From Candidatus Saccharimonadota bacterium (GTDB lineage Archaea; Nanohalarchaeota; Nanosalinia; Nanosalinales; Nanosalinaceae): a DNA stretch of 32,000 bases. The translations under genes were made by a program, and so were the position numbers. Below are positions 1-32,000 of this stretch, in pieces. Below the pieces are notes generated by a model, which saw only the letters and a list, made by a program, of their open reading frames with translations, ran no database searches and was not told where the DNA came from. The stretch covers positions 420,001 through 452,000 of the forward strand of contig NZ_CP180230.1 in the NCBI RefSeq assembly GCF_047555085.1. Direction: 5' to 3'. Positions within the stretch are counted from its first letter, which is position 1. Every line of letters begins with the position of its first letter.

Positions 1-2
1 AA

Positions 3-3000
3 GACGACGGAGAAACTTACACTGAGGACGATCCTGATACATACAACGGACTTGTAAGAGCTAATTCAAGCTATGATGGCGATGGCGTTAAATGGTTCAC
101 AGATAGCTACGGGCCTGCTGCTGAGGTAGAGTTAACTCCTTACAATCCACTGGATTATTCTGATGGATATGCACTGGAGGATGACTGTGGGCCTGATGTA
201 GAGTTCTGTGAGGACTCAGGCCTTGCAAATACTCATATGGAGGGGAGGGCGGTGTATTCATACTTTGAAGAAGGTAGGCCTGAAGATGACAGAATCAATT
301 CTCTTGTTGAGGATGGTAGCGAGGATGAAATAGTTGCTGGAGAGGTGTTCACAGGAGTTTCTGTCAGGACATGGGTGGGATATGCCAACGGTACAGCTAG
401 TTACGAGCATGGTGCCACAAACAATCAGGATGAGGAGAATACGGAAAATACTGTGTTTGATTCATCTGATAACTGGCCTACAGAGAACTTGAATGATTCA
501 AGTATTGATAGACTGGAGGATACATGGGCAATCGCAAATACCACTGAGAAGGCTGTAGGGCCTACAGGAAGGCCTTATCCGGAAGGAAAGTGTTATGGTC
601 GTAGCCCGCTAAGTGTCGATGATTACCAGGTAACTAAGAATGAGAAGGTGATGGGTAACTCCTTCGCAAAAGCCGTTGATATCAATGGAGATGGCACTTC
701 CAGGAAGAAAGGTGTCTGGGTGAATCCTGATTCCACAGTTGACTCTGCTCTTACAGGAAATCTTTCCTGTGATCTAAACGTGACTGACTGGGGATTCGGA
801 TATAATGCAAGTACTGATGCCGATTTACAGGTTATCCGTGGAGATGCAAGAGAGTTCGGATACGACAGGGATGATCCTCATGTTGTAGTCGGAGACATAC
901 CTTTCGATATCAACTCGGATCCTAACGGCGTAGGAGAAGACGAAAATCTTCAGCAATACCCTAACGCATGTGGCGATGACAGAAACGAGTACCTTATCCG
1001 CGAACACCGTGATACCGCCGACAGCACCGAACAGATGCCAGATCTTACAGAGGACGATATATACGGCTGTACAGACAGGATCAGTGACTGTGTATTCAAT
1101 GGTTCCATATACAGCGAGGGCCAGGTAGTAGACATACAGTCATACGGTAGAGAGGAACGTGGAACCAACTCAATAGATGAAGAAGTCTGTGTAGATGTAG
1201 ATGAAAGTATTCCTGGAGGAGAATGGTACGATGTGGATAACGAATCACTGAACCAGTATCTGAAAGGGGAACAAGGCCTCTATACAGAGGATAATCCTGA
1301 TACGTACACCGGAGTGGTAAGGGAAAACGCAAGTTACAGCGGCGATGGCGTAAAGTGGTTCACAGATAGTTATGGGCCTGCAGAAGAAGTAGAAATCTCG
1401 CCGTTCAATCCTTTGAACTATTCTGATGGATACGCTTTGGAGGATGACTGTGGGCCGTCAATCGATTACTGTGAAGACTCTGGAGTGGAGGATACTCATT
1501 TCGAGCCTGATGCTGTGTACTCGTTCTTTGAGGAAGGGCATATAGGCGATGACAGGAGGCCTAGTCCGGAAGATGATACAAAGCCGGATCCGAACAGCGA
1601 CTACTTTGAAGCTATCTCTGTAAGAATGTACGTTGGATTTGCTAACGGTACTGCGTCAGCTGAGCACGGTGCTACAAACGGTCAGGATAAGGAGAACGTG
1701 CCAGATAATCTTGATTTCAACGTTACGAAGTGGGGTAAGACTGTATCGCTAAATGATTCTACGATTGATCCGCTTGAAGACACATGGGCTCTTTCAAACA
1801 GGACTTCTGCGATCGTTGGACCTACAGGAAAGGTCTACAGTGAAGGAAAGTGCTACGGACAGAACGTACTTGATCAACCCGACTACCAGCTTACAAAGGC
1901 TCAGAAAGCTGTAGGTAACTCGTACGCCATGACTGTTGACGTAAATGGAGACGGTACATCAAAGGAGAAAGGTGTATGGGTGAATCCGGATTCAACCGTG
2001 AAATCCGCTACTACAGGAATCCTTTCATGTGAACTAAACTCTACTGACTGGGGTTATGGATTTGATCTAGGTAACAACTCTGATCTACAGATTATCCGTG
2101 GAGATGCACGCGAGCAGGATTACGATAGAAGCGATCCTCATGTAGTTGCCGGGCCTGTACAGTTCGATATAGAGTCTGATCCAGGTGCTGCGGAGCAGGA
2201 TCACTTGCAGCAGTATCCGGGTGCCTGTGGAGATGATAGAAATGAGTACCTTATCAGAGAACATCACAGTCCTATTGAAGGCCTTGAACATGATCCATCT
2301 CTGGAGAGAGATAATATCTACGGATGTGCGGACAGGATCAGTGACTGTACATTCCAGGGAGAAGTATACAGCGAGGGCCAGGTAATCAACGTGGAGAATC
2401 AGAGTAGTGAGAGAGGCGTTGATTCTGTGGATGAAGAAGTCTGTGTAGACGTAGATGAAAGTATTCCTGGAGGAGAATGGTACGATGTGGATAACGAATC
2501 AATCAACCAGCTTATCAAGGGAGAAAACCATATCGGTGATAATACAGCGTCTTATCAGAATTCTTTCGTTAGAACAAAGGAAAACTATGACGGTGACGGC
2601 GTAGTATGGTTCAACGATAGCTTTGCACCGGCAGAAGAGGCCGAAATTTCGCCTTATAACAATATTACTTATTCCGATGGATATGCATTGGAGGATGACT
2701 GCGCAGAGAATATTCAGTACTGTTCCGATGAAGGCGCCACAGAACAGCATTTCACTCCTGATGCTGTGTACTCGTTCTTTGAGGAAGGAAGGCCTGAAGA
2801 CGATGCTAATGTCTTCGAAGGACGCAGCGTCAGAATGTACGTTGGATACGCCAACGGTACAGCTAGCTACGAGACAGGCGCCACGAATGATCAGGATACA
2901 GAGAATACTTATGGCCTTGAGTTCGATTCAACGGAGTATGACTGGCCTACCGAAAACTTGAATGATTCTACGATCGATCCGCTTGAAGACACCTGGGCAT

Positions 3001-6000
3001 TGTCAGCAAGACTTGAGTGGCCTGTAGGCCCTACAGGAGAGGTCTGGAGGAATGGTTCCTGTTACGGGATGAACCCTTGGAACTCACCGGATGCCGACTG
3101 GGTGACAAAAGATCAGAAAGTCGTTGCCAACTCTCTTGCAATGGCGGTTGATGTCAACGGATATCCTCCTGAAAATGCGCACTATGATACTTCAGAGATT
3201 GCGGATCAGAAGAAAGGTGTATGGGTGAATCCGGACTCCAGTGTAAGATCTGCTACCTCCGGAGGAACAAGCTGCGATCTGAACGCTACTGACTGGGGAT
3301 TCGGTTACAACCTCGGAGATGGTGAAGAACTACAGCAGATTGAAGGAGACATCCGCGAACAGGGATACGATCCGAATGATCCGAACGTAGTTGCCGGAGA
3401 TATCAAGTTCGATATCAACTCGGATCCTAACGGCGTAGGTGTAAGTGAGAACTTGCCTCAGTACCCTGAGGCCTGTGGAGACGACAGAAACGAATACCTG
3501 ATCAGGGAGCATAGAAGCCTTTCAGACAACTCTGAGCATAATCCGCAGCTAGATGATGAGGATATCTACGTATGTGCAGACAGGCCTAGTGACTGTGCTT
3601 ACAACGGTGAAGTGTACAGTATGGGCCAGAAAGTTGATATTTCAAGTGAGAGCGATGACGAGGAGCTTGGAGTAGGTTCTGAGGATGCAGAGATATGTGT
3701 GGACTCCAATCCGGAGATTCCGGGAGGAGAGTGGCAGGATGCAGATAATGAAACTAATAGAGAACATGTAATTGGAGACGGTGATCCGAACAAGACTGAG
3801 ACGTATGATGGATTTATCAGCTACAGGAACGGAAGCGGAAACGTCCACTGGTTCAACTATACTTGGGGTGCAGACGTTGATTATCCTGCAAGAGAGGCCA
3901 TGATTTCGCCGTATAATCCTGTAAATTATTCTACAGGATTTGCTCTTGAGGATGATTGTGGGCCTGAAGTCAGTTACTGTGAGGATACAGGCCTTACACA
4001 GACGCATATGAATAATGACAGCGATCCAAGTGACGATCTTGTGTACTCTCCGTTTGTTGCGGGTGAAGGTGCTGATGACTATGACGTATTCGATGGTACG
4101 GTTGTCAGGATGTATGTTGGTGGAAGTGCCGAACACGGTGCATCGAATCCTCAGGAGGATCAGAATGTTTTCGAGAATCTCCCTCAGTTGAACGATTCCA
4201 CAATTGACAGGAATGAGGATACATGGGCGATCGCGGGAGAGCCTTACTATGCTGTAGGGCCTACAGGGCATGTATACAAGAATGGTTCGTGCTATGGAAG
4301 GTTCAACAGTGAGACAAAGGCTGGAACTGTCGTAGCTAATTCGTTTGCATATGCTCATGATGTCGATGGCGACGGCCAGAAGGAGGGTGACTGGGTTGAT
4401 CCGGATAACTATGAAGACGCAGTTCTGAATGGATACGGTACCTGTGAGCTCAGCAACATGTCCGACTGGGGAATGGGATACAACAACCAGTCCAGAGATG
4501 AACTCAGAATTATACAGGGAGATGTACGTGAAAGAGGCTACAATGATACAGAGGACTGGAAGTTCCACGTAGTTTCAGGGCCTATCCAGTTCGATTCCGA
4601 GAATGATCCTGGGACTATGGAACAGGACAATCTTCCACAGTACCCGAACGCATGTGGAGATGATCAGAACGAACATCTGATCCGTGAACATATGAGCGAC
4701 TCCACGAAAGATGAGGCAAGGCCTGCACTGGAGAGAGATAATATCTACGGCTGTGCTGATAGAGTAAGCGACTGTGTTTACAATGGCTCTGTATACAGTG
4801 AGGGACAGACAGTAGATATCTCAAGTGTAGGAAATGATGCCGAGGCCGGCCTCAATTCGACCGATACAGAGGTCTGTATAAATACTGATGACAGGATTCC
4901 GGGAGGAGAATGGCATGATATCGACAATGTTGAGTGGCGTGACTATCTGACAGGTGCAAACGATACAGACTGGGACTACGAAGAGGACAATATTTCAAGT
5001 TACAAGAGGCTTGTTGAGCCTGAGACAGGAGATCACTGGTTTACAGATGATCACCCAGCAGCTCTGGAAGTAGAGCTGTCACCTTTCAATCCATTGAACT
5101 TCTCCGATGGATACGCGCTTGAAGACGACTGTGATCCTGACCTGGCGTACTGCGCCGATATTGGAGAAGAGAACCAGTACATGCCTGGATATGCAGTTTA
5201 CTCGGCATTTGAAGAAGATGTTGGAGAGGACGATTCCAACGTTTTCGAGGGAAGAGCTGTAAGAATGTACGTTGGATACGCCAACGGTACTGCATGGGCA
5301 CACCACGGCGCAACAAATAATCAGAGCGAGGAAAACAGTGGAGAACTCAACTTCAACGTTACAAAGTGGGGTAAGACAATTCCACTTAATGACTCCACTA
5401 TCAACAGAAGAGAAGACACATGGGCTATCGCAGACAGCACATCTGATGTAGTAGGCCCAACAGGAAAGCTCTACGATCCTGGCAAGTGTTACGGCGGCAC
5501 TCCTTCCACAGAGGATGAAGACTGGGTCTACAAGAACGAGACTGTTGTAGCAAACTCATTCGCCTATGCACAGGAAGTCAACGGCGACGGCAACGAGGAA
5601 GGAGTCTGGGTGAATCCTGATTCCACAGAGAAATCACTTACACAGGGCAACTTCAGCTGTGAACTGAACACCAGTGACTGGGGAATCGGCTACGATACAG
5701 GAGAAGGAACAAATCTTCAGGCCCACTACGGAGAGCCAAGAAGCAGTGGATACGAGGCCTCTGATATACACGCCGTCTCAGGGCCTATACAGTTCGATAT
5801 AGAGTCTGATCCTGGAGAGAAAGAGCAGATGGATGAGCCTCAGTTCCCAAGTGCCTGTGGAGATGATCACAATGAGTATCTGATCCGTGAGCACGGCTCT
5901 AACGTTGGGAATGAGTTCAGGCCTAACCTTTCACGTGACAATATTTACGGCTGTGCGGACAGGATCAGTGACTGCGTGTACAACGGCGAAGTCTACAGTG

Positions 6001-6425
6001 AAGGACAGACAGTAGATATTTCAGAGGCCTCTGCTCCGGGAGAGAATCCTGAGCGTGGAGATGATATTGCAGATGAGGAGATCTGTCTTGACCTGGATAA
6101 GAGCATCCCTGGAGGAGAGTTCTATGATAAGGATAACAACTGGACTGTAGAGAGCAAGATCCGGGAGATCGCTGATCAGCCTGACAAGACATGGGAGAGA
6201 ATAGAGTACTTCGAAGATCATGATTTCAGCAGGAATCCTGGAACTGACTGGAAGAACAGAACTCACAAGCTGAACAGGACAGACTTCGGATTCTTCAACA
6301 ACTCCGGATTCACAGAGGCAGAGTACGAGAGTTACAGGCCTTCAGGATACGCCACGGAGGATGACTGTGGAACAATCATGCAGAGGCCTTCTACAGGGCC
6401 TTGTGGGGATGTAGGTTCGGATACA
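3..6425 (+). repeat. In-frame tandem array of 385-425-aa coding modules (1 partial + 5 complete copies)
   Basis: Module starts, set at the (A/L)VYS.FEEG motif, fall at nt 249, 1512, 2763, 4038 and 5193; the last copy ends near 6425. Motifs recur in the same order in every copy: VRMYVGYANGTAS.EHGATN, LNDSTID.LEDTWA, VGPTG..Y..G.CYG, NS(F/Y)A..VDVNGDG...GVWVNPDS, SC.LN.(T/S)DWG.GY, HVV.G.I.FD..SDPG, QYP.ACGDD.NEYLIREH, DNIYGCADR.SDC..NG.VYSEGQ, EVC.D....IPGGEW.D.DN, SP.NP.N(Y/F)SDGYALEDDC......YC.D. Confidence 0.9.
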
Positions 6426-8418: not shown

Positions 8419-9189
8419 ATGAAATCAGCCAGAGAAATCCTCGACTCGATGATAGAAAAAGGATCCCATGAAATAGACAGGGATACCGATGGATTGCTGC
8501 TTTCAAGCTTTTCAGCAGGCCTTGACATAGGATTCGGGCCTCTACTGATGGGAGTAATACTTACTCTTTCAGTTGGCAGTTACGGTGACTTAAGCACAGA
8601 GCTGCTTCTGGCAAGTGCTTACTCTGTAGGATTTATCTTTGTCATACTCGGAAGATCGGAACTTTTCACAGAACACACTGCGCTGGCGGTGATGCCTGTA
8701 ATCGATGGAGAGGCCTCCCTGAAAAGTCTTGGAAGATTATGGGGGATAGTCTACGCAGGAAACATTATAGGAGGCCTGGTATTTACAGGCCTTGCCGTAC
8801 TTCTTATGCCAGGCCTTGGAGTTATCAGTCCGGAGGCCTTCGGAACAATTGCATCCAAACTTGTTACTCATCCGCTTCACTGGCTGTTGATTGCAGGAGT
8901 GTTTGCAGGATGGCTGATGGGATTACTGGCATGGCTGATTTCCTCGGCAGAGAACACGATAAGCCGAGTATTCTTCATCTGGATGGTCACAGCAACTATA
9001 GGCATGCTGCATCTTCCGCACAGCATCGCAGGAAACGTCGAAGTTCTGTTCGGCCTCTTTACGACTAACAGCGTCACTGTAATTGATTATCTCTCCTTCC
9101 TTTCACTGGCAACGATCGGAAACGCCATAGGAGGAGCGATATTCGTAGGCCTCATGAAGTACGGCCACGTCACAAGAGGCGCAAAATAA
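8419..9189 (+). CDS. Formate/nitrite transporter (FNT) family channel
   Basis: 256-aa polytopic membrane protein. It carries FNT-type signatures GRSELFTEHT (family G.ELFT..) and LPHSIAGNVE (family H.IAN) with Gly-rich helices between them. Confidence 0.75.
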   Translation: MKSAREILDSMIEKGSHEIDRDTDGLLLSSFSAGLDIGFGPLLMGVILTLSVGSYGDLSTELLLASAYSVGFIFVILGRSELFTEHTALAVMPVIDGEASLKSLGRLWGIVYAGNIIGGLVFTGLAVLLMPGLGVISPEAFGTIASKLVTHPLHWLLIAGVFAGWLMGLLAWLISSAENTISRVFFIWMVTATIGMLHLPHSIAGNVEVLFGLFTTNSVTVIDYLSFLSLATIGNAIGGAIFVGLMKYGHVTRGAK

Positions 9190-9308: not shown

Positions 9309-10787
9309 GTGAGTCAGGAACTCGGGATCACGGTAGATAAACATCAGGATACTTCAGAATGGTATACACAGGTAGTCAAGAAGGCAGGCCTTGCGGATTA
9401 CGCGCCTGTCAAAGGCTGCATGATAATCAAGCCTTACGGCATGAAGCTCTGGGAATCGATCAAGGAAAACTTCAATGATAAGATCACGGATACAGGAGTT
9501 GAAAATGCTTACTTCCCGCTTTTCATCCCGGAAAGCTACCTTGAGAAAGAAGAGGATATTGTGGAAGGATTCGATCCCGAAGTTGCATGGGTGACACACG
9601 GAGGAAACGAAGAACTGGAGGAAAGACTCGCAGTAAGGCCTACATCCGAAAGTATAATTGCACCATACATGAGCGACGAAGTAAGAAGCCACAGAGACCT
9701 GCCGCTGAGGCTCAACCAGTGGGCCAACGTCGTACGCTGGGAGCCTACCGATACAAGGCCTTTCCTGAGAACTCGAGAATTTTTGTGGCAGGAAGGCCAT
9801 ACAGCACACGCAACAGAAGAAAGTGCCGACGAGGAAACGATGCTGCGCCTAGAACAGTACCAGGAAGTGATCGAGGACCACTTGGCTATTCCTTCGATTC
9901 TTGGTTACAAGCCGGAGCACGACAAGTTCCCGGGAGCGAAGTATACTACAACGATTGAGACACTGATGCCGGACGGAAAAAGCATCCAGTCAGGTACTTC
10001 ACACCAGTTAGGCCAGCACTTTGCAGAGGCCTTCGATATCACTTTCGAGGATGAAGACTCGGAAACTCAGACAGCGTGGACGACGTCATGGGGCCTCTCA
10101 ACAAGGACGATCGGTGCCTTGATCATGGCTCACGGCGATGATGACGGCCTTAGATTGCCTCCTTCCGTTGCGCCGCATCAAGTGGTTGTCGTACCTATCT
10201 TCCAGGAGGACAATCAGGAAGAAGTCATGGATTACGCGGAAGAAGTGGCTGAAGATCTCGAAGACGAAGGCCTTCGTGTCGAGTTCGATCACAGAGAGCA
10301 CCGCACCCCTGGCTACAAGTTCAATGAGTGGGAACTGAAGGGAGTACCTCTCAGAGTTGAGGTCGGACCGAATGAGATGGAAGACGACGCGGTTACAACT
10401 GTGAGACGAGACACTGGAGACAAGGAGATGGGCATTGACAAAGAAGAATTCATTGAGTCCGCAGAGTCAACTCTTGAAGATATTCAGGCCTCTATGTACA
10501 GCGAACTGGAAGATTATCTGCATGAGAACATCAGAGAGGCAGAATCCAAGAACGAAATTTTAGCGACAATCGGCAAGTCAAGAGGCTACGTCAAGACACG
10601 ATGGTGTGGAAAAGAAAGCTGTGAAGAAGAAGTCAAGGAAGAAGTCTCGGCAGAGATCGTAGTCCTCCCGTTCCAGGAAGACTCGGAACCAGCTACAATA
10701 CAGGCCTCAGAAGAAGAAATCTCTGGAGAATGCGCAGTCTGCGGAGAAAACGCCGAGAGATGGGCATATTTTGCCAAGAACTACTAG
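9309..10787 (+). CDS. proS: Prolyl-tRNA synthetase, archaeal/eukaryotic type
   Basis: 492 aa with a GTG start. Class II motifs are present: FLRTREFLWQEGHTAH, SHQLGQHFAEAF, WANVVRWE. The C-terminal Zn-type domain (CGKESCE...CAVCGE) and the terminal ...FAKNY are typical of archaeal ProRS. Confidence 0.93.
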   Translation: MSQELGITVDKHQDTSEWYTQVVKKAGLADYAPVKGCMIIKPYGMKLWESIKENFNDKITDTGVENAYFPLFIPESYLEKEEDIVEGFDPEVAWVTHGGNEELEERLAVRPTSESIIAPYMSDEVRSHRDLPLRLNQWANVVRWEPTDTRPFLRTREFLWQEGHTAHATEESADEETMLRLEQYQEVIEDHLAIPSILGYKPEHDKFPGAKYTTTIETLMPDGKSIQSGTSHQLGQHFAEAFDITFEDEDSETQTAWTTSWGLSTRTIGALIMAHGDDDGLRLPPSVAPHQVVVVPIFQEDNQEEVMDYAEEVAEDLEDEGLRVEFDHREHRTPGYKFNEWELKGVPLRVEVGPNEMEDDAVTTVRRDTGDKEMGIDKEEFIESAESTLEDIQASMYSELEDYLHENIREAESKNEILATIGKSRGYVKTRWCGKESCEEEVKEEVSAEIVVLPFQEDSEPATIQASEEEISGECAVCGENAERWAYFAKNY

Positions 10788-10806
10788 ATAGTTCTTTGGT
10801 ATCTCA

Positions 10807-10832
10807 TTTTTCTTCTTTTTATTCTGATTTTT
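10807..10832 (+). terminator. Oligo-T tracts downstream of proS
   Basis: Three T5 runs (10807-10811, 10816-10820, 10828-10832) start 20 nt after the proS stop. Archaeal termination is oligo-T driven. The tract overlaps the 3' end of the convergent ORF. Confidence 0.4.
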
Positions 10833-11466
10833 GAGGATTCTTGTCTTCTACTATATTTACTCTCTGTTCTCTGCTGTATCTTGACTGGAACTTTGCCAGT
10901 TTTTCAGCCCTCTGTGTAGCTGCTGGAGGGCTTTCGGCTCTGTTTCTTTCGACGTCTTCTACTGTTCTGTTGAGTATTTCCTCTCTGTTCCCCAGTCCTT
11001 CAGGGCCTGATGTATCTGGCCTCACAGCGGTATACTCCGGATCTATTTTTATCTCTATTTCAGGATCATGCTCCAGAATGTTATCCACAACTGTTGAGAT
11101 GCAGTCGTTCAGCCAGACACCGGCCAGAGTAACTTCTTCTGTTTCTGATGTTATACTCTCTAACTGCTCCTCATTTAGATCGCCGTTGCTGTCGTCTTCC
11201 AAAATTTCATCGTATTCGTGAAAGTTGTAAGGCAGGTGTGTCTGATCTTTAATTTCTCTGGGCCTTTTGATGGCCTTGTGATCCAGCGGTAAATCTGATC
11301 CTCTATCCAGATACGCCACTGCTGTTGTATGCCCATATTCTTCAAATGCAGAATCTATTCTATCCTCCCAGTGATCGCCGTACAAAGCTTTACCTGAGTC
11401 CTCATCAAACTCTCCTCCAAGATAAACAATATCACCGTGAACCACTACCAGTTCATCTTCAGCCAT
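10819..11466 (-). CDS. Acidic hypothetical protein (215 aa)
   Basis: Long ORF with the same D/E-rich composition as neighbouring genes. I recognise no motif securely; the segment VTLAGVWLNDCISTVVDN is only faintly like a cysteine-hydrolase/isochorismatase strand-helix. Confidence 0.55.
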   Translation of the reverse strand: MAEDELVVVHGDIVYLGGEFDEDSGKALYGDHWEDRIDSAFEEYGHTTAVAYLDRGSDLPLDHKAIKRPREIKDQTHLPYNFHEYDEILEDDSNGDLNEEQLESITSETEEVTLAGVWLNDCISTVVDNILEHDPEIEIKIDPEYTAVRPDTSGPEGLGNREEILNRTVEDVERNRAESPPAATQRAEKLAKFQSRYSREQRVNIVEDKNPQKSE

Positions 11467-16241: not shown

Positions 16242-16263
16242 AGGCCTTTAAGGCCTCTTTTTT
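16242..16263 (+). terminator. AGGCCT-tta-AGGCCT hairpin followed by T6 between convergent genes
   Basis: Two copies of the palindromic hexamer (16242-16247 and 16251-16256) can form a 6-bp stem with a 3-nt loop. The stem is followed by C + TTTTTT (16258-16263). It sits 4 nt after the helicase stop and overlaps the stop of the convergent peptidase gene. Confidence 0.45.
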
Positions 16264-20150: not shown

Positions 20151-20590
20151 CGATAGCTTTCGCTTCCGCTATTTGAATGATTTTGAGTTACCTTGGTGTC
20201 GTGTGGTTGTATGTTGTTGTGTTGTAGTGTCATAGATTGAGTATCACCAAAAACAGAAACTTTCGAGGCGTATAGAGGCCTCTACAGAATCAGGATAATC
20301 AGCAGAATAATAGATACGGCACTGAATCTAGCTGAAGTCAAGTCAGTGCACTTTGAATTTGAAAACTGTGAAAAAACTGTAGAACTGTTAGAGCCAAGGC
20401 TAAAGCTATGATAATTACAGCTCTTGCAGAACGCGGCCACCCTTCTGGAGGCCTTCAATAAAACGTCCACCCTTGATTGCCTTGGACATAGACTCTGTTA
20501 TGACACTATCGTTTAAATACCTGTTGTAAATTCTATGTGTTTTTTCTGCAGGCCTCTATCTTGTGTTTCTGCGGCGTTCGTTCACTCACC

Positions 20591-20600
20591 TATTTAAATT
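20591..20600 (+). promoter_or_regulatory. Candidate TATA box (TATTTAAATT) for psmB
   Basis: AT-rich TATA-like octamer about 65 nt upstream of the ATG at 20663. A GGTGAT SD-like element lies at 20651-20656. Confidence 0.35.
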
Positions 20601-20662
20601 TGGCATGTCAATCTAAGCGTAGGAAGTTTTTCCTGATTACTGCATTTCTCGGTGATGATTTA

Positions 20663-24807: not shown

Positions 24808-24812
24808 GAGAA

Positions 24813-24819: not shown

Positions 24820-24864
24820 CTGATCGGCGTATGAATTTTAAGCGAAACTTTCGAACTTGTGTTT

Positions 24865-25116
24865 ATGGTATACGAGATAAAATGTGATAACTGCGGTGAG
24901 ATAATTGATTTCGGCGGCAGAAAGCCGGAAGATTCTCTTAATCCAGAGGACAAGTTTCCTGATGATGCTATAAAATTTGATGGAAGCACGTACTGCAAGG
25001 CCTGTGTCAATGATCTGATTCAGTTCGGTGCTGGAAATATCACCAGCAGGATTGATCATCTTGAGGATAGGCTTAGAGAGGCCCTGGAAGCTCTGGGTAT
25101 ACCTTTCAAATCTTGA
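24865..25116 (+). CDS. Small Zn-ribbon protein (CxxC...CxxC) with C-terminal helix
   Basis: Reads MVYEIKCDNCGE...STYCKACVNDL... followed by an amphipathic IDHLEDRLREALEALG. I prefer the ATG at 24865 over the GTG at 24859. The AT-rich element AATTTTAAG lies about 25-30 nt upstream. Confidence 0.45.
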   Translation: MVYEIKCDNCGEIIDFGGRKPEDSLNPEDKFPDDAIKFDGSTYCKACVNDLIQFGAGNITSRIDHLEDRLREALEALGIPFKS

Positions 25117-25192
25117 TAGAAAAAATTCTTCAACTACGGATCGTGTACGGCCTTTGAAGTAGGAAAAGATCGGATAAATGTGTGGAGGGCCT

Positions 25193-25567
25193 TTAAGGGG
25201 CCTGACTTCCTTTCTCTTTTGTGCTTCTTGCAATTTCTGCGTAGCTTGGACAGGCCACGATCCAGCTTTCGTCGACTCCTGCCATGTCTCCGTCAATAGC
25301 TTTGATTGTCTTCTTCAGTCTGTTGACGGCTCTCTTCAGGTTGGTCATGTCTCGGCTCTTCAGGGGTCCGATGTTGATCCATACGATGTGATCATTTCTC
25401 AGGTGGTCCTGAACTGCTTCAATGTCGTCGAACTCCTGAAGTGTCTCGGCTCTTATAACAGCCTTTTTGTTGCCTTCTGCTACCTCTGCATCTAGCTCAA
25501 CAAAGTCATCGTCTACAATTTCTTCGGAGTCGTCCTGTTTATCTTTATTCAGAAAATTAAGTGGCAT
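25193..25567 (-). CDS. sepF: SepF-like cell-division protein (DUF552 family, FtsZ-associated)
   Basis: 124 aa. An acidic N-terminal tail is followed by VIRAETLQEFDDIEAVQDHLRNDHIVWINIGPL...LKRAVNRLKKTIKAIDGDMAGVDESWIVACP. This matches the SepF core (block-stopping region, R..D.L.G...a..G.i..i....l..P). GGAGGT SD lies 12 nt upstream. Confidence 0.65.
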   Translation of the reverse strand: MPLNFLNKDKQDDSEEIVDDDFVELDAEVAEGNKKAVIRAETLQEFDDIEAVQDHLRNDHIVWINIGPLKSRDMTNLKRAVNRLKKTIKAIDGDMAGVDESWIVACPSYAEIARSTKEKGSQAP

Positions 25568-25610
25568 TAATGTTATGCTACCTCCTAGTTGTAAGCGTGT
25601 TCTACACGTT

Positions 25611-25620
25611 TTTATATATT
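25611..25620 (-). promoter_or_regulatory. Candidate internal TATA box (minus strand AATATATAAA) ahead of sepF
   Basis: Located in the 57-nt UPF0147-sepF spacer, about 45-50 nt upstream of the sepF ATG. Confidence 0.3.
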
Positions 25621-25624
25621 GTCT

Positions 25625-25870
25625 TTAGCTGCTGAGGCTTTCTGTTTTAGATGCCAGGTTCCAGATCTCTGTCCTGGTGTGCTGTTTGATGTTAGGATCA
25701 TTGCTTACCTGATCCAGAAGTGATGATGCCGTATTGACACGTACCTCGAGATCTTTGTCCTCGTTTTCAAGTTCTTCAGCTGCCTCCCTGATCATATCGG
25801 CAACATTTGAAGGAACAGATCCCTCATCTGCCAGATCTCTCATTTGCTGTGTAACTGCTTCTACTGACAT
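25625..25870 (-). CDS. UPF0147-family small archaeal protein
   Basis: 81 aa. ...DEGSVPSNVADMIREAAEEL...RVNTASSLLDQVSNDPNIKQHTRTEIWNLAS..E matches the family pattern D..VPRN(I/V)R..A......L......R...A...LD.(I/V)S.DPN.P.H.RT.IW. Confidence 0.6.
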   Translation of the reverse strand: MSVEAVTQQMRDLADEGSVPSNVADMIREAAEELENEDKDLEVRVNTASSLLDQVSNDPNIKQHTRTEIWNLASKTESLSS

Positions 25871-25873
25871 TGT

Positions 25874-26206
25874 TTATCCCTGCAGACCTGAGAACCTGTC
25901 TCTAAGTTCCTTGAATTTTTCCTGAAGCTGTTCTTCCTTCTTTTCGAGGCTCTGCTTTCGAACCTCCAGATCTTCTTTCTTCTCCTCCAGCTCATCTTCA
26001 AGCTGTTCTCTGTCACGGGAAACAAGTATGTTCCCTACAGACTTGTAGACATCTCCCTTGTCACTTTTACCAAGTTCTTCAAGAGACTTGTCAATTCCAT
26101 CAAGTTCAGTAAGTGTTTCCTCTTTTTGCATGTTAACCTGCTGTAGCTGGCTCTGAACCTGCTGCAGCTCCATCATTGCTTCCTGTGCATTGTTCTCTTC
26201 AGTCAT
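25874..26206 (-). CDS. pfdB: Prefoldin beta subunit
   Basis: 110-aa coiled-coil / beta-hairpin / coiled-coil protein. Contains VYKSVGNILVSRDREQLEDELEEKKEDLEVRKQSLEKKEEQL. It starts 3 nt upstream of the stop-adjacent UPF0147 gene. Confidence 0.8.
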   Translation of the reverse strand: MTEENNAQEAMMELQQVQSQLQQVNMQKEETLTELDGIDKSLEELGKSDKGDVYKSVGNILVSRDREQLEDELEEKKEDLEVRKQSLEKKEEQLQEKFKELRDRFSGLQG

Positions 26207-26222
26207 AAATTATCTTTACACC

Positions 26223-26447
26223 TCAACGTTCCAGTAACTTCTTTGACAGGCTTAAAAGCCTGAAAACCGTATCCGAACTTCCACGTAAATGGCCAATACT
26301 TCCACTCTCAGCCCTGAAAACAACATTCAAGGCCTCATCATCAAACTCCAGACTGTAACTAACGTTTTCATCTGTAACAAGACTTGGACTGACACATCGA
26401 TAAAGTATGTCAGGCCTCTCGGCCTCGATATCAAGCTCAGCCCTCAT
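26223..26447 (-). CDS. pcc1: KEOPS complex subunit Pcc1-like
   Basis: 74 aa. ...ILYRCVSPSL....VSYSLEFDDEALNVVFRAESGSIGHLRGSSDTVFRLLSLSKKLL fits the Pcc1/CTAG fold pattern (A.d...LRas.n...r.l). The position between rpoP and pfdB is the same as in haloarchaeal genomes. Confidence 0.6.
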   Translation of the reverse strand: MRAELDIEAERPDILYRCVSPSLVTDENVSYSLEFDDEALNVVFRAESGSIGHLRGSSDTVFRLLSLSKKLLER

Positions 26448-26461
26448 CCCGAAAAAGGCCT

Positions 26462-26602
26462 CTAAATGGCTTCAACTTTTGAAGGAGTTTCAGGCCTCTT
26501 CTTGAAAAGTACTCTGTGACTGCACTTTGGACAGATAACTTTCTCATCGATAGGTTCCAGATCTACTTCTGTCTCGCAGTTGACACAGATGTATGCAGCC
26601 AT
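26462..26602 (-). CDS. rpoP: DNA-directed RNA polymerase subunit P (Rpo12/RPABC4 homolog), 46 aa; not in supplied ORF track
   Basis: My translation of the minus strand is MAAYICVNCETEVDLEPIDEKVICPKCSHRVLFKKRPETPSKVEAI*. It has a CxxC...CxxC zinc ribbon plus the R(V/I)L(F/Y)KKR signature. GGAGGAG SD lies just upstream, and the gene sits 3 nt after the L37Ae stop. Confidence 0.85.
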   Translation of the reverse strand: MAAYICVNCETEVDLEPIDEKVICPKCSHRVLFKKRPETPSKVEAI

Positions 26603-26605
26603 TTT

Positions 26606-26881
26606 TTACTCCTCCTCTTCTGCCAGTTCTTCTTTTGCCTCTTCAAGTTCCTCGAACTCTACTGTGGCACCTGACTTCAAGGCCTTTGAAAGAATTTCGT
26701 CTGCACCGGTGTCTCTGTCGTATGCTCCACCGGCTACTTTCTTGCCGGTTTCCTTGTCTTTCCAGATTCCTGCTGCGACTCTTTCAAATCCTTCTGGCGT
26801 TGACTCTGCTTCATCTACATTTTTTCTGATTCTGCTTCCGTACCGTGCTCCAAATCGCTTGGAGGACTTGTTTTTAGACAT
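26606..26881 (-). CDS. rpl37ae: Ribosomal protein L37Ae (eL43), cysteine-free variant with acidic C-terminal tail
   Basis: 91 aa. The N-terminus SKRFGARYGSRIRKNV...E..S, GIW and AGGAY are the eL43 hallmarks. There is no Cys anywhere. The canonical position is between rrp42 and rpoP. AGGTGA SD lies upstream. Confidence 0.8.
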   Translation of the reverse strand: MSKNKSSKRFGARYGSRIRKNVDEAESTPEGFERVAAGIWKDKETGKKVAGGAYDRDTGADEILSKALKSGATVEFEELEEAKEELAEEEE

Positions 26882-26935
26882 TATTCAGTTCACCTTTTGA
26901 GTTGCTCTATTGAAGTAAATAAAAGGAAAGTTTTT

Positions 26936-27724: not shown

Positions 27725-28473
27725 TATAGGTCACCTCCGTTGTACTTCTCCATGATAGTCTGTCTCTGCTGCTCGTATAACTGTCTGCATCCATCTTTCG
27801 CTAGCTCGATGCAGTCCTCTACCTGTTGAGTTGTCAGATCTCCATCCATCTGGAGAAGTGTAATCTTGTCCTCGTCCTTCGTGTTTTCATCATCGCTCTT
27901 GTTGATCGTTGCAATAGGGATATCGGCGTTACCTTCCTTATCCTCCTTCCCGTTGACGTCAAGAACAGGAGTTTCATCAACAACACCTGCTGCACACGCA
28001 GAAACCATTCCCTTCATAGGAATACCGGCATCTGCAAGAGCTAGAGCTGCTGCTGTAATACCTGTAACACGTGTCCCTCCATCAGATTCAAGGATTTCCA
28101 TTGAGATATCGATTCCTGCAGTAGGGAACTTTTCAAGCTCCAGAGCAGGCTCAAGTGCTCTCTTCGCAACAAGGCCTATCTCCTTAGCTCTCCTGTTAGG
28201 ACCAGGCCTCATCCTGTCGTCTACTGAGAAAGGAGCCATGTTGTAACGCATCTTGATTACAGCACGATCACTTTCCTGAAGGTGCTTAGGATGCAAGTCC
28301 TGAGGTCCGAAAACTGAGGCAACTACACGTGTGTTACCGATCTCGACCATTGCAGAACCATCGGCTTCGTCAAGAACTCCGATCTCCATACTTGTATCTC
28401 GCAGTTCGTCAGCTTTTCTGCCGTCAACTCTTCTTCCTTCATCATCAAACCATTCAATTTCTTCTTCGCTCAT
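27724..28473 (-). CDS. rrp41: Exosome complex catalytic RNase PH subunit Rrp41
   Basis: 249 aa. Contains RVDGRKADELRDTSMEIGVL.EADGSAMVEIGNTRVVASVFGP and the phosphate-site motif SDGGTRVTGITAAALALADAGIP. Confidence 0.92.
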   Translation of the reverse strand: MSEEEIEWFDDEGRRVDGRKADELRDTSMEIGVLDEADGSAMVEIGNTRVVASVFGPQDLHPKHLQESDRAVIKMRYNMAPFSVDDRMRPGPNRRAKEIGLVAKRALEPALELEKFPTAGIDISMEILESDGGTRVTGITAAALALADAGIPMKGMVSACAAGVVDETPVLDVNGKEDKEGNADIPIATINKSDDENTKDEDKITLLQMDGDLTTQQVEDCIELAKDGCRQLYEQQRQTIMEKYNGGDL

Positions 28474-29162
28474 TATTCTTCACCTTCGATTTTCTCGTCA
28501 AGCCATTCTTCCATCCTGTCTGTCAGGCCTGAAGTGTGTGCTTCCTCTTCAACTTTTTTCACTGCCTCTGCAGCGACTTCAGGGTACTGTCCGTGGATCC
28601 ATACAAGCCCGTTCTGCCCAACAACGATGTGACAGTTGGTCTTCTTGTTGATCTGCTGGACCATCGTTCCCTGGCGTCCGATGACACGTGGAACCTTGTG
28701 AGGGGAAATATTAACGATTCTTCCGTCCTCAAGCTTCCTGCATCGGTCATCAAGCATCGTCAGGTCGACATCCATGGACTCGGAAACTGAATCGATCTTG
28801 ACAACAATAGCATCTCCGACATCATAGAAATCAGTCAAGTCGTCTTCATCCAAGTCGACGTACTGATCAGAGGCCTCGCTGATATTCAGTGTGCCCTCGT
28901 AAGGAGAGTCCAGATCGACGTTCCATCGGGAGTAACTTACACGAGTTACTTCTCCAATGACGACATCGCCTTCTTCAGGGATGTAGCGTCCGTCCATCGG
29001 CTGTACCTGTACAGAATCTCCGCTGTACTTCACAGTACCTGTAAATTTCGAATAGATTTTACCTTGTTCAACGTATACTCCGGAACCAGGGCGCTGTTCG
29101 CCGTCATCCGCCACCAGATCTCCCGGAGCAACAATATCGTTATCTTCTTTAACTTTTGACAT
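28473..29162 (-). CDS. rrp4: Exosome complex RNA-binding cap subunit Rrp4 (S1 + KH)
   Basis: I start at the ATG at 29162 (MSKVKEDNDIVAPGDLV...). The S1 region is GDVVIGEVTRVSYSRWNVDL and the KH region is KVPRVIGRQGTMVQQINKKTNCHIVVGQNGLVWI. The 25 upstream codons of the track ORF are non-acidic and lie in AT-rich promoter DNA. Confidence 0.88.
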   Translation of the reverse strand: MSKVKEDNDIVAPGDLVADDGEQRPGSGVYVEQGKIYSKFTGTVKYSGDSVQVQPMDGRYIPEEGDVVIGEVTRVSYSRWNVDLDSPYEGTLNISEASDQYVDLDEDDLTDFYDVGDAIVVKIDSVSESMDVDLTMLDDRCRKLEDGRIVNISPHKVPRVIGRQGTMVQQINKKTNCHIVVGQNGLVWIHGQYPEVAAEAVKKVEEEAHTSGLTDRMEEWLDEKIEGEE

Positions 29163-29335
29163 ATTCAAACCACATCTTATATTACGAAAATTTGTTTCTA
29201 CAAAGAAACCTTTTTTATAATATACAAAACGAGACAAAACGTTATAAATCGTTTCTTAAAAACAGATGCAGAGATCCGGCATTCGGACCCTCTAAACCCA
29301 AAAGATATTTATTGTTACTATATGATGATAACAGC

Positions 29336-30193
29336 ATGAGCGATGGGCCTGAGCTCGACAGAAGAAATTTTCTGAAGTCGGGAGCCGTAACTTTTGCCTC
29401 TGCAGCAGGCCTTACAGCTGCTTCTGAAGCAGCAAGCAGTCTGCAGGGTTATAGTGAAGATAATGATGTTCTTTACGGACCTCACACGGAGGACAGCGAG
29501 CCCTATGATCCGTCTGAACTTTCAGATGATATAGATGGACTGTTCCTGGAAAACTCTGGAGACTACATGCATAATCCTGTAGCACATCTGGAAAATCTTC
29601 GATCAAGGCCTCAGTACAGGGAGCTTATCGATGAGATGGCTGAAAGAGAGATCCCGATATACTTTGGAGACGTTGATCTCAGCACGGATGCACAAGTAGC
29701 AGAGACAGGCCTCATGGCGGGAGAAGCAGGACTCGGAGCAGGCCTTGCAGCTTACGCAGGAAAAGGAGAAGATTTCACGGGGACAGATGGAGCTCTTGCA
29801 GGTATCGCCGGATGGCTGATACAGCCTTTCGCCACTTACTCGGCGTTCATGGGATCAGGTGGAGAAGTAGATCATGTGGAGGCCTCGAACGATATGCATC
29901 CGGAAAGTTTTGCCATGACAAGAGGCCTGAGAAACGCTGTAACTGCATACAAGCAAAATGAGATGGATGGGGATTTTGGAACTGTCTGGGGATCGCTTCA
30001 CAGAGGCTTCGGGGAAAGACTGGAGCAGAGCAGTAGCTCGCTCCGTCAGGAGATCGAAGGATATGATGAGGTATGGAAAAATTTTGTCGGAAATGAGGAT
30101 ACCGTGTCAACTGCTGTAGAGCTACAGAGCCAGGGAGGAGAATGGTATGTGGAAGAAGTCCATGAATTCCCTGAGCTGGATGAAATAGTCTAG
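29336..30193 (+). CDS. Secreted hypothetical protein with twin-arginine (Tat) signal peptide
   Basis: I start at the ATG at 29336: MSDGPELD-RRNFLKSG-AVTFASAAGLTAA-SEAASS. This is a near-consensus (S/T)RRxFLK motif plus an h-region. The mature part is acidic with two Gly/Ala-rich hydrophobic stretches. AT-rich TATA-like DNA (GATATTTATTG) lies 25-30 nt upstream. I recognise no family. Confidence 0.6.
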   Translation: MSDGPELDRRNFLKSGAVTFASAAGLTAASEAASSLQGYSEDNDVLYGPHTEDSEPYDPSELSDDIDGLFLENSGDYMHNPVAHLENLRSRPQYRELIDEMAEREIPIYFGDVDLSTDAQVAETGLMAGEAGLGAGLAAYAGKGEDFTGTDGALAGIAGWLIQPFATYSAFMGSGGEVDHVEASNDMHPESFAMTRGLRNAVTAYKQNEMDGDFGTVWGSLHRGFGERLEQSSSSLRQEIEGYDEVWKNFVGNEDTVSTAVELQSQGGEWYVEEVHEFPELDEIV

Positions 30194-30876
30194 TACTCCT
30201 TGACTTCAGCCTCTCCACCGGTGTACTCCTGTAGATCCTCCATTAACTCTGTAAGGACTCCTGCAGGAAGAGAAACTCTTGCAGTGAAGTAGTCGCTACC
30301 CCAGTTTTCCTCTTTTATGTCAGCTACCTGCTGCAGCTTATCATAGGCCTTTCCAGTCTTATCGACAGGAATCCTGATGGCAACATCTTTTTCCTGAAGA
30401 GAGATAGGGATAATCGGCTTAAGCAAATCCGTGGCCTCGTCGAAGGCCTCTTCAAGATCTGCATCCCAGTCAATGTGGAATCCGGCCTCCTCCAGAGCGT
30501 TTTCAACACGGTTCGGAGGATGAGGATTTCCGGTCTGAGGATTCTGGGCGCGTCTTGCGATCATGTTGACAAGCTGCTTCCATTTATCCTCCCGTATCTC
30601 TGCTTTCTGATCCGTTGTCAACTGCATCTCTCCTTTCTCGAAAACTTCTTCAGCGGCATCCAGCACCTGCTTTGTACCGAATTCCTGTTCAAGCTCATCG
30701 GCAGAAGCTCTTTCACCTGCTCCTGCATCCTTGAACACTTCCTGTACAAAAAGAAGCCTCTGGATATCATGATCTTTACCTTCCATCTTTGTCTCTTTCG
30801 CCAGATCAGGATCTACAAGTATCTCAAAATCTTTCCCATCAGAATAACTTATCTTTATCGCTTCCGAAGTTTCCAT
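30190..30876 (-). CDS. sdo1: SBDS/Sdo1-family ribosome maturation protein
   Basis: I start at the ATG at 30876 (METSEAIKISY...). Contains VFKDAGAGERASADELEQEFGT......AEEVFEKGEMQLTTDQKAEIREDKWKQLVNMIARRAQNPQTGNPHPPNRVENALEEAG, which is the typical SBDS FYSH plus central domain. The track's upstream TTG start is unnecessary. Confidence 0.85.
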   Translation of the reverse strand: METSEAIKISYSDGKDFEILVDPDLAKETKMEGKDHDIQRLLFVQEVFKDAGAGERASADELEQEFGTKQVLDAAEEVFEKGEMQLTTDQKAEIREDKWKQLVNMIARRAQNPQTGNPHPPNRVENALEEAGFHIDWDADLEEAFDEATDLLKPIIPISLQEKDVAIRIPVDKTGKAYDKLQQVADIKEENWGSDYFTARVSLPAGVLTELMEDLQEYTGGEAEVKEY

Positions 30877-30951
30877 ACCAGAAAACTGGAGGCCCAGTCT
30901 TAAACAATTTTCCAAAAGATCGCAACGTAGTACTGACTTAATTAATTACAG

Positions 30952-31635
30952 CTACAGGAGGCCTGAGTCTGGGAGACTGTATCTATCCGTCTCCTCCATC
31001 CACTGAAAATTTTCGGCCTCTCCATCGTAGGCAAGGGCCTCGGCGATATCTACCTGGGCCTCTCCGAAGTCTTCAGGAGTATTCTGCCAGATATGATGTG
31101 TATCCGTGACTTCCACCTGACGGGCATCCAGACGTCCCTCCATGGTGTCGTCGTAGAATACCACGCCATCAGTTTCAGGCTCCAGTAAGCCCTCATAACT
31201 CTGCATACCGGCCGGTATATCAGATCCGACGAATGCTACTACATCGTTTCTATCCATGACTCCTGATTCAAGTGCGTATGATCCTCCGCAACAGTACCCA
31301 AATACTGCTGTTTCTCCATCAAGCATTTCAACGGCTTCCCGTATCTCATCGAAAATTATCTCCGGTGAAGTATTGAATACAGGCCCTTTCTCCCTGTCGA
31401 TAGCCTCATCACCAAGATTCAGTGTTACAAGAGCAGAGTCCGTACCTCTACCGCCAAGAGCCTCGATTATATGAGTTGTTGGATCATGCTCTACAGAAGT
31501 CGGGAAACCTCCGACCACGAGGCCTGTATCAAAGCTTCGGGCAGACTCGTTTTCGGATTCATAGAACAGAGTTTCCGGCTCTATAGTCTTTCCTTTATCG
31601 GCCTCGAAATCGTATCCTGTTTCATCATCCGCCAT
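30952..31635 (-). CDS. Possible dienelactone-hydrolase-family alpha/beta hydrolase
   Basis: I start at the ATG at 31635 (MADDETGYDF...). AVFGYCCGGSYAL resembles the DLH nucleophile elbow G(F/Y)C.GG. A candidate His lies in TDTHHIW near the C-terminus. The assignment is weak. Confidence 0.4.
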   Translation of the reverse strand: MADDETGYDFEADKGKTIEPETLFYESENESARSFDTGLVVGGFPTSVEHDPTTHIIEALGGRGTDSALVTLNLGDEAIDREKGPVFNTSPEIIFDEIREAVEMLDGETAVFGYCCGGSYALESGVMDRNDVVAFVGSDIPAGMQSYEGLLEPETDGVVFYDDTMEGRLDARQVEVTDTHHIWQNTPEDFGEAQVDIAEALAYDGEAENFQWMEETDRYSLPDSGLL

Positions 31636-31670
31636 TCTGTTCCCCCCGTTTATTGGTGGAAATATTATCT

Positions 31671-32000
31671 TCACAAGTCGTTAAATAACTTGGAATCAAG
31701 ACTTTCCCTCAAAATATTTTTTATCTCTGAAGCATCACAAGCTGATCCAGAGGCCTCTATACCCGCTTCATCCAGAAGAAACTCAAGGAACTTTCTGTTG
31801 TTCAAACTGTCATGGATGTACGTGCCTCCGACGCCGGACTGATAAACTCCTTCATTCCCGTCTTCCAGACTGAACAGATTCTGATCCGGGACATCGGAGT
31901 TGCCGTAGTGGATCCTGTAACCGGTATATTTTTCACCTGAAAAACCGTATTTCACCTGCTCAAGATTTTTCTCATCTTCAAAAACCGTGTCAAAATCAAG
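31671..32000 (-). CDS. 3' end of an acidic protein-coding gene that begins beyond the window edge
   Basis: The minus-strand frame is open from nt 32000 (LDFDTVFEDEKNLEQVKYGFSGEKYTGYRIHYGNSD...) down to the TGA at 31671-31673. The GTG 'start' in the track at 31955 is internal. I do not recognise the function. Confidence 0.5.
   Translation of the reverse strand, partial: LDFDTVFEDEKNLEQVKYGFSGEKYTGYRIHYGNSDVPDQNLFSLEDGNEGVYQSGVGGTYIHDSLNNRKFLEFLLDEAGIEASGSACDASEIKNILRESLDSKLFNDL

Follow-up and report, generated by a model that had tools for sequence, protein, structure and literature searches.

A lineage-specific, highly iterated AGGCCT palindrome of the HIP type in nanohaloarchaeal DNA

The locus and its iterated hexamer

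The 32,000 bases analysed here (the window; positions 420,001 to 452,000 of contig NZ_CP180230.1, 46.4% G+C) encode strongly acidic, archaeal proteins, among them those of an exosome operon, the proteasome, FttA, SBDS and prefoldin, and are interspersed with the palindromic hexamer AGGCCT, which occurs exactly 109 times, that is 3.4 times per kb or about once per 300 bases. A preceding sequence-only reading of the window, which had put the number of sites at about 105 to 110, had considered the DNA to derive from an archaeon and symbiont and the hexamer to resemble HIP1, the highly iterated palindrome (HIP) of cyanobacteria. The assignment of the organism is borne out by the prolyl-tRNA synthetase (ProRS), the homologues of which are nanohaloarchaeal, with a best match of 93% and, as the nearest named organism, Ca. 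Nanohalovita haloferacivicina with 87%.

Dinucleotide-preserving shuffles of the window (100) contain 6.6 ± 2.6 copies of AGGCCT with a maximum of 13, and Markov models of order 0 and 1 predict 6.7, which results in an observed-to-expected ratio (O/E) of 16 (16.3) and agrees with the expectation of about 6 and the more than 15-fold excess estimated previously. Expectations amount to 22 at order 2 (O/E 4.9), 50 at order 3 (O/E 2.2) and 106 at order 4 (O/E 1.0), whereby order 4 carries no information, since both pentamers, AGGCC (143 copies) and GGCCT (159 copies), exist almost only as parts of the motif. Among all 4096 hexamers AGGCCT has the top z-score under the order-2 model, and it leads the hexamer ranking 2-fold, 109 versus 55 copies for the runner-up, with the words that follow, GGCCTC, CAGGCC, GGCCTT and GAGGCC, being overlaps of the motif itself. 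Its 18 one-letter variants are present in 2 to 25 copies each, and other palindromes, already described as scarce, are found 12 (GGATCC), 12 (GAATTC), 10 (AAGCTT) and 3 (TGGCCA) times. More than half of the GGCC tetramers had been thought to be embedded in AGGCCT, and 109 of 214 (51%) indeed are. The site coordinates given earlier are mostly correct, with a few shifted by 1–2 bases from the true values 13743, 20276, 20550 and 23298.

The sites are dispersed without further context. Flanking positions carry less than 0.15 bit, with 0.15 bit at the +1 position, and the weak signal that exists, a rare T before and a rare A after the motif, arises because TAG and CTA are generally scarce in the genome. 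Spacing follows a Poisson process, with a variance-to-mean ratio of 1.0 and a Kolmogorov–Smirnov p of 0.68 against the exponential distribution.

Independence from protein coding

With 23–27 genes called in the window, 92–95 sites are coding and 14–17 do not lie fully within a coding sequence. As the sequence-only reading had claimed, AGGCCT occupies all three codon phases (21/30/41), which rules out a restriction to a single phase, and is present in genes of both strands (60 sites in plus and 32 in minus strand genes) as well as in spacers (14 non-coding sites); one of the examples given, a G-L at 218, is not established, as this site is located upstream of the first callable start codon (237). 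Synonymous-codon shuffles, which keep every protein, and hence all dipeptides, together with the pooled codon usage, produce 11.3 ± 3.4 sites (maximum 24) versus the 92 coding sites observed. The resulting O/E of 8.2 (z 23.6) is far above the threshold of about 3 that had been proposed for such codon- and dipeptide-preserving controls. Non-coding DNA, with 14 sites in 3.0 kb, reaches 4.6 sites per kb, about 22 times the expectation, and coding DNA 3.3 per kb.

Where a peptide can be encoded by AGGCCT through synonymous choice, here called an opportunity, the motif is used in about 73% of the cases in the window, that is at 21 of 27 R-P, 41 of 58 x-G-L and 30 of 43 [QKE]-A-[FLSYCW] contexts. 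Outside the motif the codons concerned are minority choices in their families (GGC 19%, GCC 22%, AGG 19%). The peptides R-P, G-L and [EQK]-A-x, which AGGCCT can encode, are common in acidic halophile proteins, such that the hexamer might be perceived to result from biased codons, dipeptides or composition, or alternatively to be the footprint of a longer dispersed repeat. To such explanations we assign next to no probability: the excess persists with proteins and codon usage fixed and extends to non-coding DNA, the motif codons are disfavoured elsewhere, and equally acidic relatives fill merely 2–13% of their opportunities. A longer dispersed repeat, similar to miniature inverted-repeat transposable elements (MITE) or repetitive extragenic palindromes (REP), is ruled out by the random flanks.

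Patchy distribution among nanohaloarchaeal relatives

For comparison, 15 nanohaloarchaeal lineages were covered, each by the approximately 20 kb that surround its ProRS gene. Besides the window, AGGCCT is highly enriched in L081 and L083 (2.5 and 3.3 per kb, ProRS identity 93% each) and in L089 (4.4 per kb, 84%; this locus carries SG9 ProRS). Moderate enrichment is found in L086 (CP046106.1, 88%) with 1.8 per kb and in L087 (CP107255.1, Nanohalovita, 87%) with 1.6 per kb. Non-enriched are L092 (88%, 0.05 per kb), L090 (84%, 0.37 per kb), L091 (82%, 0.19 per kb), L001 (81%, 0.23 per kb) and L034 (78%, 0.09 per kb). O/E values are 13–21 in three related enriched lineages, and densities span 0.05–4.4 per kb among lineages with 82–93% ProRS identity. 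Enriched and non-enriched lineages interleave in the ProRS tree, in which L092 is sister to the most enriched group. Some nanohaloarchaeal lineages thus have the AGGCCT trait switched on whereas close relatives have it switched off, a pattern that the sequence-only reading had not anticipated.

The density in 28 haloarchaeal loci, representing possible hosts, is 0.17 per kb, 20-fold below the window, and 0.13 per kb in 43 other archaeal loci. The same word can also be found in the opposite state. In L092 (ena:ERZ28435101 k141_189244), which has a single AGGCCT in 21 kb, the tetramer GGCC is under-represented with 19 copies versus 33 expected (order-2 Markov O/E 0.57), as it is in L034 (JACOQA010000001.1) with 16 versus 36 (O/E 0.45).

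Apart from ProRS, genes of these lineages are only 55–80% identical, so that synonymous sites are saturated and each genome stands at its own equilibrium. Near-identical contigs (L083/84/85 and L081/82) contained too few population single-nucleotide polymorphisms to polarise changes at AGGCCT, and a search of metagenome contigs with the ProRS of the window gave, among the matches listed, 80 loci which were all distant (at most 60% identity). A search of genome contigs with a ProRS alignment gave, among the matches listed, mostly haloarchaea and Bathyarchaeia, which served only as outgroups.

Site sharing between genomes and consequences for proteins

Among enriched genomes, an aligned AGGCCT is also AGGCCT in the partner in 60% of cases versus 18% for other palindromic hexamers, and the constituent codons are identical at 87% inside versus 45% outside the motif. 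Between enriched and non-enriched genomes, on the other hand, 1% of sites are shared versus 11% for the controls, with 25% versus 28% identical codons. The test is that of Xu et al. for HIP1 (PMC5861425), in which conservation and parallel saturation give the same result, and its p-values are inflated because genome pairs are not independent. ProRS illustrates the pattern, as the enriched lineages share most sites while non-enriched orthologues use other codons. Together with the protein-preserving shuffles, the occupancy of all phases and of non-coding DNA and the overridden codon preference, positional sharing supports the conclusion, already drawn in the sequence-only reading, that the force producing AGGCCT acts on the DNA and not on the protein.

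Proteins are nevertheless affected. Motif-compatible peptides amount to 13.5 per 1000 amino acids in highly enriched versus 8.9 in non-enriched lineages when all open reading frames (ORFs) are considered (p 7e-8, about 1.5-fold), and to 14.3 versus 9.7 among orthologues only (p 0.008). At three sites of ProRS, A-G-L encoded by AGGCCT corresponds to A-D-L or A-E-L in relatives, and Q-A-S to Q-E-S. Replacements at motif codons are mostly motif-creating (I>L 7, D>G 4, E>A 4).

A sharing of sites far above that of control palindromes, which Xu et al. interpreted as selection for HIP1 with a proposed role in chromosome structure (PMC5861425), would also be compatible with selection for dense binding sites of a chromosomal protein involved in nucleoid organisation, replication or segregation, and the graded advantage of partial sites (see below) resembles a binding-energy landscape. 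We regard this explanation as unlikely. Local spacing is purely Poisson, without regular phasing, thousands of near-neutral sites are hard to sustain by selection in small symbiont populations, and close relatives manage without AGGCCT.

Strength and shape of the preference

Considering all ORFs, 57–80% of the opportunities are used in highly enriched, 50–54% in moderately enriched and 2–13% in non-enriched lineages; in eight orthologous housekeeping genes the corresponding values are 82%, 63% and 2%. The odds ratio at coding opportunities, about 40, resembles the approximately 22-fold excess in non-coding DNA, such that one uniform advantage for the complete motif fits both compartments.

Comparison of 96 kb of highly enriched with 107 kb of non-enriched DNA shows how this advantage extends to related words. 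The exact motif is 18-fold up. Variants at positions 1 or 6 are up 2.1–4.3-fold in highly and about 5-fold in moderately enriched DNA, while variants at positions 2–5 are all down in highly enriched DNA (0.65–0.93), with AGACCT/AGGTCT lowest (0.65), and the two-mismatch class as a whole stands at 0.88. Where both flanks are incorrect, GGCC shows an about 2.4-fold increase in moderately enriched DNA and stays at baseline in highly enriched DNA. The roughly 300 extra AGGCCT sites in 96 kb far exceed the summed deficit of about 80 among the inner one-off variants, which indicates that sites are drawn from a broad sequence neighbourhood via intermediates that keep GGCC. A directional force at the level of DNA hence favours exact AGGCCT roughly 20- to 40-fold, alike in coding and non-coding DNA, and the GGCC core with one correct flank 2- to 5-fold; it overrides codon preference and raises the frequency of motif-compatible peptides.

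These figures bear on very-short-patch repair as the sole cause. A Vsr-type nuclease together with a C5 methyltransferase would convert T:G mismatches into C:G in AGGTCT/AGGCTT, in the way proposed for E. coli CCWGG; one nanohaloarchaeon has an annotated Vsr-like nuclease, and the transition neighbours AGACCT/AGGTCT do form the most depleted class. However, every inner neighbour is similarly depleted, the excess of sites surpasses the combined inner deficit, the two-mismatch class is drained as well and an 18-fold enrichment is beyond the reach of conversion at a single position, which makes this explanation on its own very improbable.

Features of the window

Individual features are collected in Table 1. 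The tight cluster that had been noticed in the formate/nitrite transporter gene is the densest of the window and comprises five sites; the gene uses all seven of its opportunities, and its protein is rich in G-L and A-x contexts.

Table 1. Positions of AGGCCT features and of genes discussed in the text (opp., opportunities used of those offered).
Feature	Position	Strand	Remarks
109 dispersed AGGCCT	1..32000	both	random flanks save TAG/CTA avoidance; Poisson spacing
Giant acidic ORF, 2708 aa	237..8363	+	opp. 18/20; few offered (2.5/kb)
Densest cluster, sites 8711, 8772, 8787, 8811, 8834	8711..8839		inside formate/nitrite transporter gene 8419-9189
ProRS gene	9309..10787	+	opp. 7/7
Acidic ORF, 215 aa	10819..11466	-	opp. 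0/4; only gene off pattern
Paired AGGCCT, 9 bp apart (AGGCCTTTAAGGCCT)	16242..16256		TTA between; spacer of convergent DEAD-box helicase and M29 peptidase genes
Intergenic region upstream of proteasome gene	20151..20656		sites 20276, 20449, 20550
Motif-free gap within LamG-domain gene	23499..24695		gene opp. 3/5, not anomalous
Motif-free gap over SepF, 81-aa ORF, prefoldin beta	25004..26329		0-1 opportunities in these genes

The motif-poor stretches pointed out earlier do exist, as three AGGCCT-free gaps of 978, 1203 and 1332 bp, but they have no special meaning: gaps of this kind are expected because spacing is Poisson and the genes located there offer few opportunities (SepF 0, prefoldin 1, LamG 5). 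A possible exception is the 215-aa ORF, two of whose four opportunities hold the one-off variants AGGCCA and AGGCCC. At 73% usage its complete lack of the motif has a chance of about 0.005. It matches no Pfam or NCBIfam entry, has an orthologue in none of the fetched loci and may have been acquired recently, as yet unconverted.

On either strand, the inverted pair between the helicase and peptidase genes forms a hairpin of 6–7 bp with a T-run behind it, although its fold is no better than that of shuffles (z -1.3). The pair may have been co-opted as a bidirectional terminator-like element. The giant ORF upstream of ProRS probably encodes a surface protein resembling those of other nanohaloarchaea; at this position the loci of relatives hold different giant ORFs with PKD, GEVED and lectin domains. 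The LamG protein has no halovirus match. Small genes in 24859-26881, which a cut-off of 100 aa for ORFs had missed, encode an 85-aa zinc-ribbon-like ORF, an 81-aa ORF, Pcc1 (26223-26447) and ribosomal protein L37Ae (26606-26881) and complete a typical archaeal exosome-proteasome superoperon, while a 106-aa plus strand ORF (26580-26900) was rejected as an antisense artefact.

A candidate mechanism and the search for an enzyme

AGGCCT is a lineage-specific highly iterated palindrome of HIP type, and the proposed likeness to HIP1 in an archaeon held in every test run, including the bias of near-cognate sites towards deviations at the outer positions. As for its cause, we tentatively favour a methyltransferase-linked repair ratchet, driven by an orphan enzyme for AGGCCT or its GGCC core, in analogy to the ratchet of kept and corrected replication errors that Elhai proposed for HIP1 (PMC4390886). 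A sequence-specific enzyme, carried by the enriched lineages only, would exert the force, the likeliest candidate being an orphan DNA methyltransferase which recognises AGGCCT or GGCC and is coupled to repair. Of the errors made in replication, those giving rise to a site would persist and those abolishing one would be corrected, and sites, drawn from the entire sequence neighbourhood, would build up to the point at which most permitted positions are occupied. The ratchet is preferred because it acts at every motif position and explains the hierarchy of core versus flanks, and because it agrees both with the GGCC avoidance in sister lineages and with the quick turnover, by gain and loss, that is typical of modification genes. 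GGCC-directed enzymes may circulate in the group, as suggested by this avoidance in L092 and L034, and both C5 methyltransferases and Vsr-like nucleases are known from nanohaloarchaea (supplement of PMC10266531).

Several observations weigh against a ratchet of this kind or limit how far it can be generalized. The genes that it calls for, an AGGCCT- or GGCC-specific methyltransferase, endonuclease or repair gene, were not found in the window or in the approximately 20-kb loci of enriched relatives. A type III Mod/Res system is all that Reva et al. describe for Ca. Nanohalovita, which is moderately enriched (PMC10266531), the published methylome (GDGCHC) stems only from the non-enriched Ca. Nanohalococcus, and the sole traceable nanohaloarchaeal C5 methyltransferase family goes along with depletion of TGCA, not with AGGCCT. 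The comparative data fit a neutral ratchet and selection for a function alike; for HIP1, Xu et al. argued in favour of selection (PMC5861425). In well-conserved columns, the overall replacement at motif codons equals the background (15% vs 15%), which implies that most AGGCCT sites arose on pre-existing opportunities. Finally, each lineage is represented by one locus, such that a genome-wide action of the force is an extrapolation, and the trees are single-gene neighbour-joining trees that are mutually incongruent.

Neither a StuI- nor a HaeIII-type gene, a search for which the sequence-only reading had proposed, is present in the 32 kb of the window, and the unannotated proteins of the window and the enriched loci are devoid of restriction-modification or repair domains. 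The C5 methyltransferase family mentioned above adjoins the pyruvate kinase gene of Ca. Nanohalococcus and was reached via the pyruvate kinase in L083. Its member in Ca. Nanohalococcus occultus CP104395.1 (L293, 8717-9859) is 65–69% identical to Halorubrum enzymes and 59% to a methyltransferase of Haloarcula virus HCTV-16, and L294 encodes the same family at 10001-11161. As the cause of AGGCCT enrichment the family was rejected, since both loci are TGCA-depleted (O/E 0.32 in L293 and 0.36 in L294) without enrichment of AGGCCT. These similarities suggest that symbiont, hosts and viruses have exchanged modification genes.

Such exchange among nanohaloarchaea, Halorubrum and haloviruses, together with the 20-fold contrast in density to haloarchaeal loci and the avoidance of GGCC in some sister lineages, would be in line with AGGCCT, probably in modified form, marking symbiont DNA that is then spared by a scavenging nuclease or a host nuclease. 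This we consider doubtful to a high degree, as restriction pressure normally gives avoidance and not enrichment, protection by modification needs no extra sites, and the window and the fetched loci yielded no candidate for either a nuclease or a methyltransferase.

Comparison with known systems

The closest counterparts are the cyanobacterial HIPs, HIP1 (GCGATCGC) and the alternate words GGCGCC, GCsGC and rCCGGy (PMC4390886; PMC5861425). In common with AGGCCT, these are GC-rich palindromes and the most over-represented words of their genomes, occur in all reading frames and in non-coding DNA, are conserved between genomes beyond control palindromes and beyond their own codons elsewhere, and are patchily present among relatives. 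In quantitative terms, HIP1 reaches 300–2700 copies per Mb compared to about 3400 per Mb for AGGCCT in the window, and the value of 16.3 for AGGCCT falls within the O/E range of HIPs, 15–300 (PMC4390886; PMC5861425). One-letter deviants of HIP1 are, as those of AGGCCT, concentrated at the outer positions around an inner core (Elhai, PMC4390886). HIP1 in the proper sense, on the other hand, is an octamer of cyanobacteria, from which the hexamer with a GGCC core in a nanohaloarchaeon is distinct. Its bearer, a symbiotic DPANN archaeon whose genome measures about 1 Mb, differs from HIP1 hosts, and, unlike HIP1, AGGCCT switches on and off among close relatives. The HIP class is associated with a cognate, usually orphan, methyltransferase in genomes rich in the motif, and with a periodicity of 10–90 kb. 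For AGGCCT, no such gene was found in the window or fetched loci, and at the scale of 32 kb its spacing is Poisson.

Uptake sequences offer a second parallel. The DNA uptake sequence (DUS) of Neisseria and the uptake signal sequence (USS) of Pasteurellaceae are likewise short, occur about once per kb or more densely, in both orientations and in tolerated frames, shift peptide composition and have partly enriched mismatched copies, and they spread by drive without benefit to each site. AGGCCT could be imagined as a comparable tag: if DNA that bears it were imported or recombined preferentially among conspecific nanohaloarchaea, molecular drive would spread the motif with no benefit at the single site. 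Poisson scatter, presence in all frames and in non-coding DNA, partly enriched near-cognates and a shifted proteome are all known for uptake sequences, and 3.4 sites per kb versus 0.17 in haloarchaeal DNA could discriminate self from host by a factor of 20. HIP1 itself has recently been suggested to serve as an uptake sequence that correlates with proteins of type IV secretion (bioRxiv 10.64898/2026.06.24.733823), and VirB4/TraG-like ATPase domains occur in giant surface proteins of nanohaloarchaea (PMC10266531). Of inverted pairs at gene ends, which are frequent among DUS and USS and act there as terminators, the window has one, at 16242-16256. Yet DUS and USS are 9–12 bp long and non-palindromic, have informative flanks and are served by known competence machinery, while AGGCCT, six bases without any signal beyond the hexamer, is far below this length. 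To our knowledge, neither natural transformation nor competence genes have been described in these organisms, and the gene content of the window bears in no way on uptake. An uptake tag is consequently conceivable, though rather improbable. A broader variant, in which AGGCCT would be a dense, probably modified tag of self DNA in the DNA traffic between symbiont and host, read by an uptake, recombination or nuclease system with which the symbiont distinguishes its own from scavenged host DNA, and toggled repeatedly as lineages changed partners or enzymes, appears unlikely to us as well.

With type II restriction-modification, AGGCCT has in common that it is the StuI site and includes the HaeIII site, and that GGCC is avoided in the sister lineages L092 and L034. 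The sites of active restriction-modification systems are normally under-represented (Rusinov et al. 2015, PMC4687349), whereas AGGCCT exceeds its expectation 16-fold, a state compatible with an orphan methyltransferase at most. A further comparison is E. coli, where biased repair at a methylated palindrome alters oligonucleotide abundance. Very-short-patch repair by Dcm/Vsr of E. coli enriches CCWGG modestly, draining one specific neighbour; the enrichment of AGGCCT is an order of magnitude above this effect and draws on the whole sequence neighbourhood.

Other iterated words and viral contigs

The haloarchaeal loci provide a further word of interest. In L018 (Halalkalirubrum salinum N1521, NZ_SRSG01000010.1, 21.4 kb) CGATCG, the core of HIP1, is the commonest hexamer with 119 copies (5.5 per kb), 17 times the expectation from base composition and 1.7 times that of the order-2 Markov model, with one-off variants at 3–33 copies. 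Elsewhere in haloarchaeal loci CGATCG ranges from 0–1 copies (L008 and L012, where GATC is also avoided) to 62 in Halococcus morrhuae. CGATCG may therefore be a second HIP-like palindrome, in a haloarchaeon. GATC is strongly avoided, too, in the nanohaloarchaeal L002 (CAZEKI010000056.1; 5 copies versus 29 expected) and in the haloarchaeal L294 (JGI Ga0207719_100034; 8 versus 101).

A search of viral contigs for three AGGCCT copies within about 80 bp gave at least 120 loci, mostly with local tandem repeats, and no nanohaloarchaeal virus was identified among those listed. Dispersed AGGCCT is present in L094 (IMGVR_UViG_3300029432_000018), with 13 sites in 3.6 kb at 36% G+C, and in L175 (IMGVR_UViG_3300031867_007516), with 22 sites in 10.8 kb. 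Both are unrelated to nanohaloarchaea, as their proteins are not acidic, such that AGGCCT may be iterated in other hosts too.

Significance

Full-text searches of open-access literature gave no prior report of an AGGCCT motif in nanohaloarchaea. The motif belongs to the known HIP kind and is new in its sequence, its length, the domain of life and its phylogenetic dynamics; it looks like an independent instance of the HIP1 phenomenon in another domain of life. As the reason for the abundance of HIP1 in cyanobacteria has been open for about thirty years, AGGCCT offers a route towards it. Genomes of about 1 Mb in closely related enriched and non-enriched lineages could help to identify the responsible enzyme, a contrast much harder to obtain in cyanobacteria, where nearly all lineages have HIP1, and the moderately enriched Ca. 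Nanohalovita haloferacivicina is already in culture. In practical terms, AGGCCT density is a sharp signature to assign metagenomic contigs, and possibly viruses, to these lineages, and StuI, provided that its site carries no modification, would cleave the DNA of the symbiont at about 20 times the frequency of host DNA. For the biology of these organisms, AGGCCT demonstrates that, in a symbiont with a reduced genome, codon choice and, to a measurable extent, the sequences of core housekeeping proteins can be reshaped by a short motif in the DNA.

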